This document shows positions 36,916-64,000 of a stretch of DNA of 64,000 bases, in pieces (position 1 is the first letter of the stretch; the number at the start of each line of letters is the position of its first letter). The notes below the pieces were generated by a model. The model made no database searches. It had not been told where the DNA came from and worked only from the letters and a program-made list of their open reading frames with translations. The DNA is from an uncultured Candidatus Saccharibacteria bacterium (lineage in GTDB: Bacteria; Patescibacteriota; Minisyncoccia; Phycocordibacterales; WO2-35-19). Where the stretch lies: the NCBI GenBank assembly GCA_964589445.1, contig CAZPQX010000004.1, positions 17,632-81,631 of the forward strand. Direction: 5' to 3'. Made by a program: the position numbers and the translations under genes.

Positions 36916-36917
36916 TG

Positions 36918-36989
36918 TGCTCCCGCCAGGAATCGAACCTAGAATAAGGAATTAGAAGTTCCTCGTTATATCCATTTAACTACGGGAGC
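36918..36989 (-). tRNA. tRNA-Arg (anticodon TCT)
   Basis: Hand-folded: acceptor gctcccg/cgggagc, D arm gtta-aatggata-taac, anticodon arm aggaa-cTTCTaa-ttcct, T arm ctagg-ttcgatt-cctgg. No encoded CCA. Confidence 0.8.
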
Positions 36990-37040: not shown

Positions 37041-37116
37041 TGGTGCGCGCTGAGGGACTTGAACCCCCGACCTTCCCAGTGTAAATGGGTTGCTCTACCA
37101 ACTGAGCTAAGCGCGC
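37041..37116 (-). tRNA. tRNA-Val (anticodon TAC) with encoded CCA
   Basis: Hand-folded: acceptor gcgcgct/agcgcgc, D arm gctc-agttggta-gagc, anticodon loop ttTACac, T arm ggggg-ttcaagt-ccctc, 3' acca. Confidence 0.8.
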
Positions 37117-37166
37117 GATTTCACGAACCAATATACCATAACATACTTTTATGTCATAGTATACTT

Positions 37167-37934
37167 ATGGAAATTAAAATATTATATGAAGACGAATCTG
37201 TCTTGGCAGTTAACAAGCCATCTGGTCTTTTAGTTCACCCCGATGGTCGGGCTAGTGATTACACCCTGACTCATTGGATAGGCGAAAAATACCCGGAGCT
37301 TGCTGATGTGGGCGAGCTACAGGTGTTACATTCTGGGGGTGTGATAAAACGTCCAGGCATAGTACATAGACTTGATAGAGACACGAGCGGAGTCATTTTG
37401 ATTGCTAAAACAAAAGAATCTCACCAGTTTTTGAAGGAGCAGTTTCAATCTCATAATGTTGAAAAAATATATAACACAGTTGTGTATGGAAAATTTGGCG
37501 AAGATAAACTAGAGGGAATAATTGATCTCGGTATTGGTAGAAGTGCTCATGACTTTAGGAAGTGGATAGCTAATGATGGTAAGGCTTCTGTACAGGGAGA
37601 TGTGAGAGAAGCGCTAACTCAATATAAGGTATTAGCCCAGGGAGAAGTAGAAGGGGCAAATTTTGCCTATGTTGAAGTTAGACCTAAAACTGGCAGGACT
37701 CACCAAATCAGGGTGCATATGAAAGCCGTGGGGCATATTGTGGTTTGTGACAAAGTGTATGCGCCAAAAATGATTTGTGATGGTTCACTTGGTTGCCTTG
37801 GATTTAATAGGTTAGCTCTCCACGCTCTTTCAATTAGTCTTATGCTTCCAAACCATACAATTATAAAGATAGAGTCCGAATTACCACAGGAATTCGAAAA
37901 CGCCAAAAACCTTTTGAAAAATAAAGAAAACTGA
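37167..37934 (+). CDS. RluA family pseudouridine synthase
   Basis: HRLDRDTSGVILIAK (catalytic Asp motif), KPSGLLVHP. The track ORF begins inside tRNA-Val; the real start is the ATG at 37167 (MEIKILYEDE). Confidence 0.8.
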   Translation: MEIKILYEDESVLAVNKPSGLLVHPDGRASDYTLTHWIGEKYPELADVGELQVLHSGGVIKRPGIVHRLDRDTSGVILIAKTKESHQFLKEQFQSHNVEKIYNTVVYGKFGEDKLEGIIDLGIGRSAHDFRKWIANDGKASVQGDVREALTQYKVLAQGEVEGANFAYVEVRPKTGRTHQIRVHMKAVGHIVVCDKVYAPKMICDGSLGCLGFNRLALHALSISLMLPNHTIIKIESELPQEFENAKNLLKNKEN

Positions 37935-37946
37935 TAATATGGGTTT

Positions 37947-40900
37947 ATGTCTCAAGAACCTATAAAAAAATCAGAAGCTGCTGAAAGGGAAGAGCAAATA
38001 CTCAAATTTTGGCAAGAAAATAAAATATTTGAAAAGACTCTCCAAAAACCTTCTCCAAAGGGAGAATTTGTTTTTTATGATGGGCCACCATTTGCAACGG
38101 GACTGCCTCATTATGGTCATATGCTTGCCGGCACAATGAAAGATGTGATTCCTAGGTATAAGACCATGAATGGTTATCATGTAAATCGTGTTTGGGGTTG
38201 GGACTGTCACGGGCTACCAATTGAAAACTTGGTAGAAAAGGAGCTCGGTCTCGAAACGAAAAAAGATATAGAAAAATATGGTATAGATAAATTTAATAAA
38301 GCAGCTAGAGAAAGTGTGCTTCGATATGATGCAGAATGGAAAAAGTTTGTACCTAGGTTTGGAAGGTGGGTTGATATGGATACTCCATACAAAACTATGG
38401 ACTCCAAATATACTGAATCAGTATGGTGGTCTTGGAAGGAGCTTACTCAAAAAAATCTTGTTTACGAAGGATTTAAGGTGATGCCATACTGCCCTCATTG
38501 TGGTACGACCCTCTCCAATTTTGAGGTCAACCAAGGATATAAGGATATTTCTGATATTTCTGTATATGTAAAATTTAAAATAAAAAAATTTCCAAATAGC
38601 TATTTTGTGGCTTGGACCACCACCCCCTGGACTCTTCCGGGCAACACGGCTTTGGCTGTAGGTGCTGAAATAGAATATGTAGAAGTAGAAGTAAAGGATC
38701 AGGTTTTGGTTTTAGCAAAAGAGAAACTTTCTTTAATAAAAGAAGAATACAAAATCCTCGCAACTCATAAGGGTAGTGAAATGGTGGGTATGGAATATGA
38801 ACCAGTCTTTAATTATTTCGAAAGCCAAGATATAAAAAACAAAGAAAATGGATGGAGGGTGGTGGCGGGTGATTTCGTGACCACTGAAGATGGTACGGGC
38901 ATTGTGCATATTGCACCTGCTTTTGGTGGCGATGACTATGAGTTATCACAGAAAGAAAACCTACCGATTATTGTGCATGTTGATCTCGAGGGTAAGATGA
39001 AACCGGAAATCAAAGATTTTGCCGGAATGCTTGTTAAACCAAAGAGTAATGATGAAAAAGAAAGATTGGCGACAGATATTTCAATAATAAGATATTTGCA
39101 GGATAGAGGTAGTTTTTTTGATAAAGAAAAAATAAAACACTCTTATCCTCACTGTTGGAGATGTGATACACCTCTCTTAAACTACGCCACCTCTTCCTGG
39201 TTTATAAAGGTGACTGATCTTAAAGATAAAATGCTCAGTCTAAATTCAAAAGTAAGTTGGGTGCCAAGTGATATTGGGGAAAATAGATTTGGTAAGTGGA
39301 TAGAGGGTGCAAGAGATTGGGCCGTATCAAGGTCGCGTTATTGGGGCGCACCAATACCTGTATGGAAGTGTAACTCGTGCAAAGCGGTAGAAACCCTTGG
39401 TTCTTTTGAAGAACTAAAAAATAAAATCCACAAGAGTGGCAACAAATACTTTACTATACGCCACGGTGAGGCCGAGCAAAATATAAAAGATCTAATAAAT
39501 TCTGAGCTTTCAAACAATATTTATCATTTGACTGAAGAGGGTAGGAAGAGAGTTTTGGAAGCTAGTGAAAATATAAAAAAAGAAAAAATAGATTTTATAA
39601 TCACTTCTCCATTTTTAAGGTGTAAGGAAACTGCTGAGATAGTGCGAGGGGCTTTAGGTCTCGATGCTTCTTGTGTCCAAGAAGACGAGAGGCTTGCTGA
39701 ATTCAAGAAGGGCCCAGGATTTGAAGGTAAAAGTTGGCAAGAATATTGGGGACTGTTCTCTAGCACCAAAGAGAGATTTGAAAAGTCTCCTGACGGTGGA
39801 GAAAATCTTACTGATCTAAATAAAAGAGCAGGAGAATTTATTTATGATTTAGAGAAAAGATACTCAGGAAAAAATATTTTGATTGTGAGTCATCAGGGTC
39901 CTATTGCCTCTATGCATATGATTGCTGAAGGTGCTGATGCCGGTAGATTTATAGAGGCCAAAGAAAAGCAGATTTATACATTTGGTTTTGCTGATTTTAG
40001 AAAATTGGATTTCGCCCCGCTACCTCACAATGAAAATTATGAACTCGATGTGCACCGACCCTTTATTGATGAGGTAAGGTGGTCTTGTGAATGTGGAGGT
40101 GAGTTTGAGAGGATAAAAGAAGTGTTTGATACTTGGTATGACTCTGGTTCGATGCCCTATGCTTCAGTCCATCATCCATTTGAATCAGAAGAAACATTTT
40201 TAGGTAAGAAAAAATTTCCTTTCCCGGCTGATTTTATAGCAGAAGGTTTAGATCAGACGCGAGGTTGGTTTTATACTTTGCTTGTACTAGGCGCGGGTAT
40301 TTTTAGTAAGTCTCCTTACGACAACGTTATAGTAAATGGCATTGTGCTTGCAGAAGATGGTCAGAAAATGAGTAAAAAATTAAAAAACTATCCTGATCCA
40401 ATGGATATGGTCAATAAGTATGGCGCTGATACCATAAGGTATTACATGACAGCTTCTCCTGTCGTTAGGGCAGAAGACTTAGCTTTTTCTGAAAAAGGCT
40501 TGGACGAGGTAAGTAAAAAGCTTATCAAGCGACTAGGGAACGTGTGTGAATTTTATTTAATGTATGGCGATAGTTCTGTGACAGCAAATAATGAGTCTCC
40601 TAAGATAATAGACAGGTGGATTATTTCTCGCTTGAGCCAAGCAGGGAAGGATATAGATATGTACTTAAGTAAATACGAACTTGAAAAAGCTGCTAGGCCG
40701 GTCATGGATTTTGTGGAGGATTTGTCTACTTGGTACTTAAGAAGATCGCGCGACAGATTTAAGGCGGAAGATCAAGAAGAAAAGAAATTTGCTCTCGCTA
40801 CTATGAGGTTTATTTTGCTCGAACTTAGTAAATATATGGCACCTTTCACACCATTTTTTGCGGAAGACTTATATAGAAGTGTAAGGGGTGATAAAGAAAC

Positions 40901-41436: not shown

Positions 41437-42018
41437 ATGTATCACAAGTATCATGTAAAAGGGCTAATCTTGTCATCTTTGGAAGAGGGGCAGGATAATA
41501 AAAGGGTGTGGATGTTGACTGATCACTTGGGTCTCATAAGTGCTAAATCAGTTTCTGGGAGGTCTTTAAGTTCAAAAATGAGACTTGCCATACAAGAATA
41601 CACGCTGGGCAATTTTTCTCTTGTTTATGGTAAGGGTGGCTGGAGACTTGTGGGAGCTTCCTCCGATAAAAATTATTTTGAGTTGATGAGAGGTTATTCT
41701 TTGAAATTGAAAGCATTTCTCAATGTATCTAATCTTTTAAAGAGGCTAGTAATGGAACAGGAAATGGGCAGAGAACTTTTTGATGTGGTCGTGAGTTTCT
41801 TAGATTTTATTTATTCTTCAGAAGAAAAACATGTTTTTTTGGCAGAATGTATTACTGTACTCAGGGTTTTGTATAGGCTTGGATTTTTAGATAAAGATGT
41901 TTCCCCAGATTTATATTTACAGGATGTTGATTTGAAAAATTCTTTTGTTTATTTGCCATATGAAAGTTCATATTTGGTTTCAATAATAAACAAATCTCTT
42001 AAAGAAACAGGGATATAA
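41437..42018 (+). CDS. Hypothetical protein, possibly a short RecO-like recombination mediator
   Basis: N-terminal OB-like segment HVKGLILSSLEEGQDNKRVWMLTDHLGLISAKSVSGRS resembles the RecO N-terminus (...G.VL......E.D.....FT...G...A.A.GA..). Only 193 aa. Confidence 0.35.
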   Translation: MYHKYHVKGLILSSLEEGQDNKRVWMLTDHLGLISAKSVSGRSLSSKMRLAIQEYTLGNFSLVYGKGGWRLVGASSDKNYFELMRGYSLKLKAFLNVSNLLKRLVMEQEMGRELFDVVVSFLDFIYSSEEKHVFLAECITVLRVLYRLGFLDKDVSPDLYLQDVDLKNSFVYLPYESSYLVSIINKSLKETGI

Positions 42019-42037
42019 TTGTGATATAATATTAAAA

Positions 42038-43996
42038 ATGAGTTACGAAGAGGGGGATAAAGAAAAACTTAATAATTTAGAGAATAAGCTCTATTCTAGA
42101 GGTGCCCCAGATATTTTAGATAAGGGCAGGAGTTCTCTTGTAAAAGAAGAAGTCGATCAAGTTGGACTGGTTACTCCTAAGGAAACTATTTGGGGTAATG
42201 CCAAGCCTGGTAAGTTTGATGAAATTTCTGCAAAAATGTCTCACCTAAGCCAAAAAAAAAGTAATTTTATAAACAAACTATTTATTGTTTCTTTGTTATT
42301 TTTTGCTCTAGCTTCTGTCGTTGCTATTTTTGTATTTATAGGCGGCGGCAACTTAGTATCTTCCAAAAATGTAGATATTCTTGTTTTTGGACCAGTTTCA
42401 ATACCGAGCGGCCAAGAAGTTTCTTTTGATATAAATGTTGTAAACAACAACAATACTGACCTTACGAGTGCAGTCCTTTTAGTCGAGTATCCAAACGGTA
42501 CGAGGTCCTCTCTAGATTTATCTAAGGATTTAATCCGCGAGAAGTTTGATATCGGGGTTGTAAAATCAAAAGAAAGTTATAAACAAACAGTAAACCCAGT
42601 CATATTTGGTGATAAGGATGAATTAAGAAATATAAAAATATCTCTTGAATATAGAGTTGAAAATTCAAGTGCTCTTTTTTATAAGGAAAAGAATCACGAG
42701 GTGGTTATAAGTTCTGCTCCTGTGATAATCACACCTATATATCCAAAAGAGATAAATTCAAATCAAGATATTTCATTTGATTTAGAGCTTACGTCAAACT
42801 CAAAAGATAAATTAAGTAATTTGCTAGTAAACTTAGAGTATCCTTTCGGCTTTGTTTTTAAAGGTGCTTCTCCAGAAGCTAGTTTCGGTAATGATGTTTG
42901 GAAAGTATCGAGTCTAAATCCGGGAGAAAAAAAGAAAATTACAATAATAGGGGCCATTATAGGTCAAAACAATGAAGAAAAAGTTTTTAGGATAAAGGTG
43001 GGCACACCAAGTGAAGACGATGAAAGAGTTATTGCTGTAGCTTTTTCTGAAGTCACAGAGACTATTTTGTTAAAGAGATCTTTTATTGAACTCTCGGCAA
43101 AAGTTAATGGGGTGGAGGGTGATGCGGTTGTCCCCGCTAGTGGTGCGGTGAATGTAAATTTAGATGTAAGAAATAACCTCCCATCAAGACTTTTCAATTT
43201 GGTTACAAAGGTGGAATTCAATGGGAGCGCTTTTGATAGGACCGCAGTCTCTCCAAGTAATGGAGGTTTTTTTGAGTCTTCATCAAACAGGATAATTTGG
43301 GACAAAAGGGGCGTGAGTAATTTTGCAGACATGGAGCCAGGGCGTAGTCAGTCTCTAAGTTTTTCATTCACACCTCTTCCCTACGGAAGTATACCAAAGG
43401 GTTCTAAACCACAAGTGGACGTCACTATAACAACCGAGGGAGAGAGGGTCCTTGAGTCTGGTTCTGTGGAGAAAGTTTCAGCAACGGAAACATTTAAAGT
43501 TTCTCTTTCTACCAATATTTATCTTGGGTCAAAAATTTATAGGTCCGAGGGTAATATTGAAAATTATGGTCCGATACCTCCAAAGGCCGACACTCCTACA
43601 AGTTATACAGTGCATTGGTCTCTTGGTAATACTTTTAATCAAGTAAGTAATGTTGAGGTAAGGGCAGAGCTCCCTTTGTATGTTAAGTGGAAGGGTTTAT
43701 ATAGTCCTTCAGGAGAAAAGATTTCTTTCAATTCGGTTACTAATCAAGTGGTGTGGGAAGTAGGTTCTGTTTTGCCTGATACCGGCTCTTCTTCAAAGAG
43801 GGAGGTTTATTTCCAGATTGAGCTTACTCCTAGCATCAATCAAATTGGAAATAGTCCTATGTTGATAGGGGATGCGATGCTTACCGGCATAGACAAGGTA
43901 ACGGGTTTGAAGTTAAATACATCAGCGCGTTCTCTTGATACAAATTTTGGTGGAGATTCTACATTTAGAATTGGTGACGAAAAGGTGTCACAATAA
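42038..43996 (+). CDS. Hypothetical bitopic membrane protein with large beta-rich extracytoplasmic region (652 aa)
   Basis: ~85-aa cytoplasmic N-terminus, TM (LFIVSLLFFALASVVAIFVFIGG), then repetitive beta-strand-like domains. Contains an A9 homopolymer at 42252-42260. Confidence 0.5.
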   Translation: MSYEEGDKEKLNNLENKLYSRGAPDILDKGRSSLVKEEVDQVGLVTPKETIWGNAKPGKFDEISAKMSHLSQKKSNFINKLFIVSLLFFALASVVAIFVFIGGGNLVSSKNVDILVFGPVSIPSGQEVSFDINVVNNNNTDLTSAVLLVEYPNGTRSSLDLSKDLIREKFDIGVVKSKESYKQTVNPVIFGDKDELRNIKISLEYRVENSSALFYKEKNHEVVISSAPVIITPIYPKEINSNQDISFDLELTSNSKDKLSNLLVNLEYPFGFVFKGASPEASFGNDVWKVSSLNPGEKKKITIIGAIIGQNNEEKVFRIKVGTPSEDDERVIAVAFSEVTETILLKRSFIELSAKVNGVEGDAVVPASGAVNVNLDVRNNLPSRLFNLVTKVEFNGSAFDRTAVSPSNGGFFESSSNRIIWDKRGVSNFADMEPGRSQSLSFSFTPLPYGSIPKGSKPQVDVTITTEGERVLESGSVEKVSATETFKVSLSTNIYLGSKIYRSEGNIENYGPIPPKADTPTSYTVHWSLGNTFNQVSNVEVRAELPLYVKWKGLYSPSGEKISFNSVTNQVVWEVGSVLPDTGSSSKREVYFQIELTPSINQIGNSPMLIGDAMLTGIDKVTGLKLNTSARSLDTNFGGDSTFRIGDEKVSQ

Positions 43997-46526: not shown

Positions 46527-46557
46527 ACTTATTCCAAAATTGTGATATATTTGGAGG

Positions 46558-47997
46558 ATGAGTAAAAGTTTTTATATAACAACCACACTTCCTTATGTGA
46601 ATTCTGATCCGCATGTTGGTTTTGCTATGGAAATAATAAGAGCGGATGTTATCGCTAGATATAAAAAACTTTTAGGCTACGAGGTATTTTTTAATACCGG
46701 TACTGACGAACACGGTCAGAAGATTTTTGAAAAGGCCCTATCTCTCGGAAAGGATACACAGGAGTATGTTGATGAGTACGCTCTAAAATTTAAAGGTCTT
46801 AAATCCGCTCTCGGTCTAGACCAGGAGCTTCACTTCATAAGAACTACTGATGAACATCATAAAAAAGCAGCTCAAGAATTTTGGAATAGGTGTGCAGAAA
46901 AGGGTGACATATATAAAAAGAACTATAAAGTAAAATATTGCGTAGGTTGCGAGCTTGAAAAAACAGAATCAGAACTTGAAAATGATAGATGTATAGTCCA
47001 TCCAAATTTGAATCTTGAGATAAGGGAGGAGGAAAATTATTTTTTCAAGTGGAGTAAATATGAAAAACCTTTGCTTGATTTGTATGATAAAAATCCAGGG
47101 TTGGTTATCCCTGGATTTAGATTTAATGAAATAAAGGCCTTTGTAGAAAGGGGACTTCAGGATTTCAGTATCTCAAGATTGAAATCAAAAATGTCTTGGG
47201 GTGTGCCAGTGCCAGGGGACGAAGATCATGTGATGTATGTTTGGTTTGATGCTCTAGTCAACTACATCTCTACTTTGGGTTGGCCAGAGGATGAACAAAA
47301 TTTTGATAAGTTTTGGACAAACGGAACTCCTGTCCAATACGCAGGAAAGGATAACTTGAGGCAGCAGTCAGCTATGTGGCAGGCGATGCTTATGTCTGCT
47401 GGGTTACCAAATACACATACTATAGTTATAGATGGATTTATAACTTCTGGTGGCCACAAGATGAGTAAGTCTCTGGGTAATGTTATAAACCCTTATGACA
47501 TTGTCGCTGAGTACGGCACTGATGCTCTGAGATACTATTTGCTCCGAGAAATTTCTTCTTTTGAAGACGGAGATATGACTATAGAAAAATTTAAGGAAGT
47601 CTACAATGCCAACCTTGCAAATGGTCTCGGTAATTTAGTGAGTAGAATAATGAAGATGGCGACTGATAATCTTGATATCACTCCTGAAATCCCAGAAGAA
47701 TGGAAAAATAATACCATTATTCATGAATATCTGGATAAATTTGAAGTATCAAAGGCCATGGATCATATTTGGCTTAATATAGGTTTAATAGATAAAACTA
47801 TACAAGAGGAGCAACCTTTTAAAATTGTAAAAATAGACAAAGAGAAGGGTAAAAAAATGATTAAAGAATTGGTAAATAGATTACATGCTGTTGCCTATGC
47901 TCTTGGTGTTTTTCTCCCAGAAACTTCTTCAAAAATAAAAGCCCTTATAAAGGAAAACAAAACTCCTGAAGCTCCTCTTTTTGCCAGGAAAGACTAG
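46558..47997 (+). CDS. metG: Methionyl-tRNA synthetase (short form)
   Basis: TTTLPYVNSDPHVGFAME (HIGH-like), Zn knuckle CVGCE, KMSKSLGNVI. Confidence 0.85.
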   Translation: MSKSFYITTTLPYVNSDPHVGFAMEIIRADVIARYKKLLGYEVFFNTGTDEHGQKIFEKALSLGKDTQEYVDEYALKFKGLKSALGLDQELHFIRTTDEHHKKAAQEFWNRCAEKGDIYKKNYKVKYCVGCELEKTESELENDRCIVHPNLNLEIREEENYFFKWSKYEKPLLDLYDKNPGLVIPGFRFNEIKAFVERGLQDFSISRLKSKMSWGVPVPGDEDHVMYVWFDALVNYISTLGWPEDEQNFDKFWTNGTPVQYAGKDNLRQQSAMWQAMLMSAGLPNTHTIVIDGFITSGGHKMSKSLGNVINPYDIVAEYGTDALRYYLLREISSFEDGDMTIEKFKEVYNANLANGLGNLVSRIMKMATDNLDITPEIPEEWKNNTIIHEYLDKFEVSKAMDHIWLNIGLIDKTIQEEQPFKIVKIDKEKGKKMIKELVNRLHAVAYALGVFLPETSSKIKALIKENKTPEAPLFARKD

Positions 47998-62074: not shown

Positions 62075-62431
62075 TTTCGTTTCTGGATCGCCGAGAGACC
62101 TGCAATAAATGCTAGTTTCCCGGCGGTAGAGAAGATTTCAAGTTCGGAATGAGAGAATTTTGACAAATAAAAGCCACTGCAACATCGCTTTTCGATAGAC
62201 TTTGTTCTCTAAGGGTTAGCCCTAAGTGAGCGGAGCGAGTCGGAGGGGTCTTTGTTTGTTGTAAGTGGACAAAATCCCGTGACCTTTAATTTATTAAAGA
62301 TTTTACGGGAGTAAGGTAAGGTCCTATGCTGTTCAACACAGCGATAGGACAAATTGCCTTTTAAGTTTGGTCTTAAAAGGCAGGATAGAATGATGAATTT
62401 TCCTTTGCCGCCAATAGGGTAGGCTTGGAAA

Positions 62432-64000
<1,569 letters not shown>

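Follow-up and report, generated by a model that had tools for sequence, protein, structure and literature searches.

A histidine phosphatase domain inside the type-2 isoleucyl-tRNA synthetase of a Patescibacteria genome, and its probable one-to-one partnership with the synthetase

Introduction

Why would an enzyme that charges tRNA carry a phosphatase in the middle of its catalytic core? The question is raised by a 64,000-nucleotide stretch of DNA from an uncultured Candidatus Saccharibacteria bacterium (assembly GCA_964589445.1, contig CAZPQX010000004.1, positions 17,632 to 81,631; hereafter the window), in which ileS, the gene for isoleucyl-tRNA synthetase (IleRS), contains what looks like a complete histidine phosphatase. 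To our knowledge, catalytic accessory domains in bacterial aminoacyl-tRNA synthetases are essentially limited to editing modules. From the sequence comparisons described below, we consider it probable that the insert is an active phosphomonoesterase of the PhoE/PspA/CobC-like kind, and that it represents a stoichiometric partner of IleRS that has been internalised in this genome.

Results and discussion

The insert is predicted to fold as a separate module at the tip of a zinc-knuckle hairpin

The original prediction, made from the DNA letters, held that ileS encodes 1161 amino acids (aa) in a continuous frame and that a histidine phosphatase domain occupies positions 39420-40040 of the window. 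The gene is indeed one uninterrupted open reading frame (ORF), and alignment to IleRS2 of Priestia megaterium (8c8u) places the insert at 39420-40034, within two codons of the predicted extent. In this alignment residue 491 of the query pairs with residue 475 of the 8c8u chain and residue 697 with residue 483, and residues 492-696 substitute for approximately 7 residues. The insert is located at the tip of the CxxC...CxC zinc-knuckle hairpin, between C475/C478 and C714/C716. The Rossmann fold bears this projecting hairpin, which we call CP3 by analogy with class Ia nomenclature, on its second half, between the strands WGxPIPVW and DxW(F/Y)(D/E)SG. The separation of the flanking IleRS blocks, predicted to be approximately 260 aa, measures 252 aa from SRSRYWGAPIPVWKC (aa 461-475) to DTWYDSGSMPY.

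A Pfam search confirmed the presence of His_Phos_1 (PF00300), with a score far above the gathering cut-off (Table 1) and a match to profile positions 4-166 of 194; the tRNA-synt_1 match is divided into two stretches by this domain. The three histidine-phosphatase signatures read from the sequence beforehand are present in the order given (aa 505-512, 554-566, and 647-653). AlphaFold gives the insert alone a mean predicted local distance difference test (pLDDT) score of 96.0 and a predicted template modelling (pTM) score of 0.92, while the AlphaFold2 model of the full 1161-aa chain has a mean pLDDT of 90.9 and a pTM of 0.83, with the insert blocks at 89-97, so that the domain is modelled confidently both by itself and in context. 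The RHG nucleophile follows strand 1 (aa 500-505 in the model), and the C-terminal return to IleRS (PLPHNENYELDVHRPFIDEV) is for the most part modelled as coil, with mean pLDDT values of 93-95 in the 10-residue blocks covering it. In Foldseek searches the insert model matches GpgP, PspA, HFP, PhoE, and CobC with template modelling (TM) scores of 0.66-0.76 and E-values of approximately 1e-12, the probability being 1.00 for PhoE, PspA, and GpgP. The domain is predicted from these models to be a compact separate module that leaves the synthetase motifs intact.

We regard it as extremely improbable that the insert results from a frameshift or a chimeric assembly, or that it is an intein-like selfish element removed after translation. 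Such an origin could be read into the fragmentation of some database relatives, into gene calls that are often cut off at contig ends, and into the His-Asn dipeptide (PHN) at the C-terminal junction. However, the ORF is continuous through the insert, the identical protein is found on four contigs, of which the three shown represent three different sequencing runs, and the same junctions recur in hundreds of diverged homologues; these observations rule out a frameshift or a chimera. As for an intein, the original prediction had noted the absence of splice motifs and of an endonuclease, and the Pfam scan likewise finds no Hint and no endonuclease (LAGLIDADG) domain. The fold is that of His_Phos, and the junction dipeptide precedes Glu (PHN-E) rather than Cys, Ser, or Thr and is missing in other clades. 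A recent horizontal insertion was rejected as well: there is no break in overall GC content (0.371 for the insert vs 0.377 for the rest of the gene) or in GC content at third codon positions (0.293 vs 0.319), and the copies are deeply diverged.

Two kinds of database entry look like broken forms of the gene. Eight clusters of approximately 750-aa proteins (P0175, P0201, P0203, P0229, P0231, P0277, P0290, and P0309; loci including L100 and L101) share a start at approximately residue 421 of ileS, 45 aa before WGxP, and resemble a split IleRS. We rejected this form as cut-off gene calls: in P0175 and P0203, the pair examined on their contigs, the start lies 32-51 nucleotides (nt) from a contig end, and metagenome assemblies probably break repeatedly at a conserved ileS stretch, which would produce calls of this appearance. 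In the second case, on a 733-kb contig (L010, 4337-7857), an insert-bearing ileS lies in four ORFs (489, 195, 113, and 186 aa) in otherwise conserved synteny, probably due to long-read frameshift errors, or else as a pseudogene. Short fragments on long contigs (P0011) come from an ileS split into four ORFs, probably by frameshift errors, and were discarded.

The insert looks catalytically competent and falls outside the characterised subfamilies

To judge from its conservation, the insert looks like a catalytically competent, complete histidine phosphatase. R505, H506, R558, and H649 are each 100% conserved in 265 domains inserted in IleRS, and the position of Glu585 is E/D in 263 of these domains and in all 36 phosphatases encoded adjacent to ileS (see below). 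R505 and H506 are also invariant in the 36 adjacent proteins and in 81 copies from valyl-tRNA synthetase (ValRS), and H649 in the 36 adjacent proteins. In an alignment of 120 IleRS homologues (53-67% identical overall), R505, H506, G507, R558, and H649 are invariant, and N512 and E585 are conserved at 99%.

These data bear on the notion that the insert is a non-catalytic module, i.e., a structural or tRNA-binding lobe that grips RNA by the phosphate pocket, or a decaying relic, which we consider very unlikely. The insert is the most divergent region of the protein, with a mean pairwise identity of 43% vs 61% for the rest of IleRS in the 120 homologues, and some ValRS copies have lost the second His (9/81) or have no Glu at the general-acid position (24/81), as might be expected of such a module. 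Binding alone, however, would not demand a pattern in which the two His (nucleophile and second) and the two Arg are fixed in 265 inserted and 36 adjacent domains and the acid is E/D in at least 99%; a purely structural role is unlikely because of this pattern. Moreover, the length of the insert is nearly constant (210-221 aa from G485 to H703 in the 120 homologues), and its fold is predicted with very high confidence.

The profile score, the RHG motif, the pocket residues, and the fold all assign the insert to branch 1 of the histidine phosphatase superfamily (PF00300). The closest solved proteins by sequence are PhoE and PspA, and Foldseek ranks small-molecule phosphatases above true mutases. 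All NCBIfam equivalog cut-offs are missed: dPGM_arch scores 74 bits against a cut-off of 225, GpmB 29.8 against 261, CobC (TIGR03162) 66 against 162.9, PspA 45 against 350, and SixA 29 against 74.5. We therefore rejected equivalog identity with PspA, CobC, or SixA, as well as with dPGM, the structures of which also rank under the small phosphatases. A typical dPGM has the motif E-R-H-Y-G after the acid; the insert has E-F-K-K-G-P-G-F-E-G-K. By these profiles the insert is a superfamily member that lies outside every characterised subfamily.

The insert is a lineage trait of Patescibacteria

PF00300 is present in all 120 best full-length hits to the window protein (1144-1325 aa). Their named sources are Zambryski-, Nomura-, Taylor-, Campbell-, Yonath-, and Pacebacteria, Paceibacterota, and Minisyncoccia (Patescibacteria/Parcubacteria). 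An exhaustive HMMER search of 1.84 billion representatives, with just the insert as query, yields 6266 hits at E<=1e-3, of which 644 reach 1e-10 and 41 reach 1e-30; the 150 best consist of IleRS with the domain at residues ~490-710, fragments of IleRS, a single ValRS, and small standalone proteins. All CP3-inserted IleRS have the domain at one and the same point, between (V/I)GSxxEL and ELDxHRPYID, and the span from WGxP to WFDSG is 261-269 aa in inserted proteins vs 66-83 aa in insert-free relatives. No insert was seen outside Patescibacteria in a genome-contig scan made with a single-sequence query (6 loci), the Woesearchaeota and Clostridiales loci of which have insert-free IleRS. On this sampling, the insert is a widespread Patescibacteria lineage trait. 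The domain had been put forward as unusual and perhaps a lineage marker; the second half of this claim is borne out by the 120 best hits, while its rarity is contradicted by the hundreds of clusters that contain it. The comparison of orthologues proposed alongside shows that the insert is common among Patescibacteria homologues and that insert-free relatives also exist.

The names under which NCBI lists such proteins (P0001, P0054, P0067, P0093, etc.) are "class I tRNA ligase family protein", "histidine phosphatase family protein", and "GNAT family N-acetyltransferase", instead of isoleucine--tRNA ligase.

In some relatives the same phosphatase is encoded directly upstream of insert-free ileS

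The closest standalone relatives of the insert, P0232 (46% identity) and P0237, adjoin ileS. The standalone proteins align with the full extent of the insert, the match beginning at the conserved N-x-Y-F-x-x-R-H-G and reaching the last strand. When metagenomes were scanned with the ileS-adjacent phosphatase subgroup as seed, 80 loci were returned, all of the clade around the ileS-adjacent query member; these loci were sorted with custom hidden Markov models. The phosphatase lies inside ileS in 44 loci; in another 32, a standalone ORF of 188-227 aa is found directly upstream of an insert-free ileS (905-995 aa) on the same strand. Three of the four leftover loci end 13-284 bp from the phosphatase gene. 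Both forms together occur in none of the 80 loci. In 29 of the 32 pairs the ileS start lies -40 to +9 nt from the phosphatase stop, with many ATGA-type overlaps; the other three have distances of 85, 941, and 1381 nt. Since the standalone gene overlaps or abuts the start of ileS, translational coupling is suggested. In our view it is likely that the "adjacent, coupled" and "inserted" states are two alternative encodings of one IleRS-phosphatase partnership.

Both states have a common neighbourhood (infC-rplT, smpB, argS, the phosphatase where it is separate, ileS, recO, and a DUF11/CLIPPER-like protein), and the downstream half of this gene order is retained in the window. There, a RecO-like gene and a gene for a 652-aa DUF11/CLIPPER-like protein follow ileS at 41437-43996, an order that recurs in many related loci. 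No pathway-specific neighbour gene was found in the 80 loci, where only housekeeping genes recur, together with NUDIX in 7 of them. The latter, a small hydrolase gene, precedes the phosphatase-ileS unit at L078:101-595 and in six further loci. Another NUDIX gene (L016:9195-9668) is located two genes away from P0262, a clade member that is not linked to ileS.

The two states appear to have interchanged, and the domain was captured repeatedly

Inserted and adjacent forms interleave in neighbour-joining trees of both the IleRS core and the phosphatase, trees that carry no reliable support values. The inserted forms of L044, L058, L063, and L084, for instance, group with the adjacent forms of L049, L090, and L096 in both trees, and the IleRS of these seven loci have the derived signature EVIDCWFDSG in common. 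This arrangement suggests that the two proteins were co-inherited and that their state changed more than once. Repeated insertion has an alternative: with a junction that is identical in all CP3-inserted proteins, a single insertion may instead have been followed by recombination.

CP3 of IleRS is not the only place where the domain is found. The complete IleRS P0225 (1419 aa) has a second His_Phos domain just before the anticodon-binding domain, and in the IleRS P0271 the domain occupies three sites, one following the second zinc-knuckle half, one following HYPFxN, and one preceding the anticodon domain. In the ValRS P0183, a single copy follows the editing domain and a tandem array of three is found at the homologous CP3 site. 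A search with this protein revealed a large family of ValRS with PF00300 (P0317-P0434; 1030-1626 aa), with source names that include Gracilibacteria and Peregrinibacteria. Of the domain instances mapped within this family, 76 are at CP3, in part arranged in tandem pairs or triplets, and another 9 occupy the second site after the editing domain. The number of copies per synthetase ranges from 1 to 4; copies within the same protein are 30-36% identical and keep the nucleophile His, while the second His and the acid Glu are lost in some ValRS copies as given above. Close domain-free ValRS also exist, one of them from Nomurabacteria. As far as the mapped proteins go, the same domain has been captured repeatedly, at no fewer than five sites in two paralogous synthetases.

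Other domains were encountered inside these synthetases as well. P0067 has a GNAT domain within the CP1 editing domain in addition to His_Phos, P0298 combines an IS200-like Y1_Tnp, His_Phos, and GNAT in one protein, and there are DUF559 and HU matches in ValRS. These extras are sporadic.

Several observations weigh against a dedicated partnership. The 80 loci describe only the clade of the query, and the genes around the phosphatase form a housekeeping cluster (argS, ileS, recO, smpB, and infC), so that adjacency could in part be inherited synteny. P0262 lies far from any synthetase, near a NUDIX gene, and no phosphatase is present next to insert-free valS at the 3 loci concerned. The presence of GNAT and IS200-like Y1_Tnp domains indicates that the scaffold is permissive, none of the equivalog cut-offs is reached, and the conserved positions of the insert are nearly all generic family motifs. 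Much of this would fit the idea that an ordinary metabolic phosphatase, e.g., of the phosphoserine or sugar-phosphate type, merely stood beside ileS and was fused into a tolerant loop during genome streamlining. There would then be no functional tie to aminoacylation, and the sole gain would be co-expression with an essential gene. This idea also fits the generic translation and housekeeping character of the neighbourhood, the metabolic small-molecule phosphatases among the nearest structures, an insert that evolves faster than the core, and the range of unrelated domains (GNAT, Y1_Tnp, DUF559, and HU) housed by the synthetases, as well as the insert-free ValRS genes without an adjacent phosphatase and the unlinked P0262. 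We nevertheless consider it rather unlikely. In 29 of 32 pairs the stop of one gene abuts or overlaps the start of the next, which points to co-translation in stoichiometric amounts. Across the 80 loci one form strictly excludes the other, and this domain, as opposed to the sporadic others, was captured at the five or more sites in two paralogues and has grown to 2-4 diverged, catalytically intact copies.

Proposed mechanism and possible substrates

Under the partnership we favour, a standalone phosphatase gene upstream of ileS would have been internalised into the tip of the CP3 hairpin in the window genome. One phosphatase would be made for each IleRS and most likely works while bound to the synthetase. 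Judging from the genetics, the insertion probably made permanent a complex that had already formed at or near the CP3 hairpin. Going by the chemistry of the family, His506 would attack the terminal phosphoryl group of the substrate, with Arg505, Arg558, His649, and Asn512 holding this group and Glu585 protonating the leaving group; the resulting phospho-histidine intermediate would then be hydrolysed. We tentatively propose, as the foremost of several possibilities, that the substrate is a small phosphomonoester or a nucleotide-type terminal phosphoanhydride tied to the aminoacylation or editing cycle. The original prediction had suggested that the domain could act on a nucleotide or an adenylate-related substrate. 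The weights we attach to this substrate class, to that of an ordinary metabolic phosphatase, and to the macromolecular one discussed next are rough; they are set apart from our confidence in the partnership itself and do not form one partition.

A macromolecular substrate is another possibility. The KMSKS-loop serine of other class I synthetases is the target of HipA/HipT-type kinase toxins, and toxSAS pyrophosphorylation of the tRNA 3'-CCA end blocks charging. The histidine-phosphatase superfamily also includes protein phosphatases (SixA, PGAM5, and Sts-1). The insert could thus be a repair or immunity phosphatase that clears an inhibitory phosphoryl group from the synthetase itself, e.g., from the KMSKS-loop serine, or from the tRNA 3'-CCA end. 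If so, it would be a guardian of branched-chain aminoacylation, making IleRS (and ValRS in other Patescibacteria) self-repairing and resistant to kinase or pyrophosphokinase toxins from host, competitor, or phage; we think this unlikely. The clade does have an H-x-x-P motif after the second His, which is somewhat SixA-like, and an obligate association with a synthetase fits the enzyme itself or its bound tRNA as substrate. The documented phosphorylation of class I synthetases by kinase toxins (PMC6581861) and the pyrophosphorylation of tRNA CCA ends by toxSAS enzymes (PMC11559606) count in its favour as well. However, the locus has no linked gene for a kinase or a toxSAS enzyme, and in PADLOC the insert and two standalone relatives match no defence family at E<=0.01. 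The sub-threshold SixA match is confined to the N-terminal third, the nearest folds are small-molecule enzymes, and, apart from the generic motifs, no conserved surface patch specific to the clade was seen. In addition, the varied insertion sites speak against a strict geometry, and no toxin is known against IleRS or ValRS.

The host enzyme and other features of the window

The flanks of the insert had been described as typical IleRS, and they can be specified as type 2. The TIGR00392 (ileS) equivalog model matches with 905 bits (cut-off 621) in two stretches flanking the insert, and the type-2 enzymes 8c8u and yeast IleRS score 778 and 742 bits, vs 328 and 316 bits for type-1 8c9e and 1ffy. 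The whole chain matches 8c8u with a Foldseek TM-score of 0.82. Across 101 homologues, P54 of the HIGH region is invariant and H55, G57, and H58 are conserved at 90% or more. The IleRS editing site looks intact, because W223, T224-T226, P227, and W228 of the CP1 motif are invariant in the same set. No second ileS is present in the 64-kb window, and the gene described here appears to be the organism's working type-2 IleRS. The coordinates of all motifs are listed in Table 1.

Table 1. Features of ileS and of its insert, in window coordinates
Feature	Position	Strand	Basis or remark
ileS, type-2 isoleucyl-tRNA synthetase with internal histidine phosphatase, 1161 aa	37947..41432	+	single unbroken ORF
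Class I active-site HIGH signature (HYGH, aa 55-58)	38109..38120	+	motif position
CP1 editing-domain motif WTTTPWTLPGN (aa 223-233)	38613..38645	+	motif position
First half of CP3 zinc knuckle, CNSC (aa 475-478)	39369..39380	+	alignment
Insert (aa 492-696): apparently complete small histidine phosphatase plus linkers, ~205 aa	39420..40034	+	alignment to 8c8u
Pfam His_Phos_1 (PF00300) match (aa 504-668)	39456..39950	+	E=6e-29, 101.5 bits vs 21.7 gathering cut-off
RHGEAEQN (aa 505-512): Arg505, putative nucleophile His506, Gly507, Asn512	39459..39482	+	motif position
SPFLRCKETAEIV (aa 554-566): putative phosphate-pocket Arg558; S554 invariant	39606..39644	+	motif position
DERLAEF: putative general acid Glu585	39684..39704	+	alignment
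VSHQGPI (aa 647-653): putative second catalytic His649	39885..39905	+	motif position
C-terminal linker and return to IleRS, PLPHNENYELDVHRPFIDEV (aa 691-710)	40017..40076	+	H703, P705, and D708 are invariant IleRS residues
Second half of CP3 zinc knuckle, CECGG (aa 714-718)	40086..40100	+	alignment
Rossmann-fold block DTWYDSGSMPY (aa 728-738)	40128..40160	+	D728, W730, and S733 invariant
KMSKS-type loop (KMSKK, aa 807-811)	40365..40379	+	K807 and K810 invariant (101 homologues)

The zinc-knuckle cysteines around the insert (aa 475, 478, 714, and 716) are kept in just 78% of the 120 homologues, i.e., some relatives have lost the zinc site and retain the insert. In one metagenome-assembled genome, CAZAXK01, ileS occurs twice, on two contigs (L005 and L006); both genes are intact, bear the insert, encode 1168 aa, and closely resemble each other. 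This bin may be a mixture of two strains.

Elsewhere in the window, the 291-aa ORF listed at 37059-37934 begins with TTG and overlaps the gene for tRNA-Val (37041-37116, minus strand); that for tRNA-Arg (36917-36989, minus strand) is located immediately upstream. The true gene is probably an RluA-type pseudouridine synthase that starts at the ATG at 37164 (PseudoU_synth_2, E=1.6e-31). A short (482-aa) class I synthetase resembling methionyl-tRNA synthetase is encoded at 46546-47994. The 5' part of the 23S rRNA gene occupies 62424-64000 and runs past the end of the window; its 1577 nt cover model positions 1-1442, approximately 135 nt more than the model, which could be an insertion.

Implications and comparison with known systems

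A full-text literature search found no paper on IleRS or ValRS with a histidine phosphatase, or on a phosphatase-ileS operon, and public databases already list the sequences together with a precomputed PF00300 match. Accessory catalytic domains in synthetases are a known phenomenon; a histidine phosphatase tied to IleRS was not found described. What emerges is a class of phosphatase that appears tied one-to-one to IleRS, by fusion or by coupling, across a large part of the Patescibacteria radiation, with the same domain apparently captured independently by ValRS. Fusion plus adjacency, a Rosetta-stone signal combined with that of a conserved operon, points to a functional link. In practical terms, given the generic NCBI names, metabolic reconstructions could miss IleRS or miscount a phosphatase, and the CP3 hairpin is a natural permissive insertion site in class Ia synthetases that may be useful for engineering.

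A precedent for an IleRS with an extra enzymatic domain is the NCBIfam family NF040702 ("ileS_w_GNAT"), and P0067 and P0298 carry GNAT together with His_Phos. The domain and the site differ, however, with GNAT in CP1 of P0067, and the window protein scores 350 bits against the NF040702 cut-off of 1999. Among the matches listed (the best 25 of 30), there is no NCBIfam model for IleRS with His_Phos. The RNase H/acid phosphatase proteins (Rv2228c type, PRK07238) likewise have a CobC-like His_Phos domain fused to a nucleic-acid enzyme, and PRK07238 is the top NCBIfam match of the standalone P0232, with 97 bits against a cut-off of 326. There, in contrast to the insertion in IleRS, the fusion is terminal and the partner enzyme is another one. 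Inteins resemble the insert in being self-contained, in-frame domains within a conserved essential enzyme, at several sites and in paralogues too. Unlike them, the insert has no Hint fold, splice-junction residues, or homing endonuclease, and, being a conserved catalytic domain, it would remain part of the mature protein.

The two closest points of reference are the parent enzymes themselves. Outside the insert, the window protein is collinear with type-2 IleRS (the eukaryote-like, mupirocin-resistant type; 8C8U and Thermus thermophilus 1ILE), including HIGH, KMSKS, CP1, the C-terminal domains, and the CxxC...CxC hairpin, and it differs in having 205 aa in place of approximately 7 at the hairpin tip. 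The insert, in turn, has the fold, the size (approximately 190-210 aa, with a small cap), and the catalytic set (RHG, Arg, Glu, and His) of the small branch-1 phosphatases PhoE/YhfR (1EBB and 1H2E), PspA (4IJ5), Rv2419c GpgP (4PZ9 and 4QIH), the riboflavin-pathway HFP (9MMH), and CobC (6E4B). It is 20-26% identical to these enzymes and, unlike them, typically lies inside ileS or appears translationally coupled to it in the surveyed clade, with P0262 as an exception.

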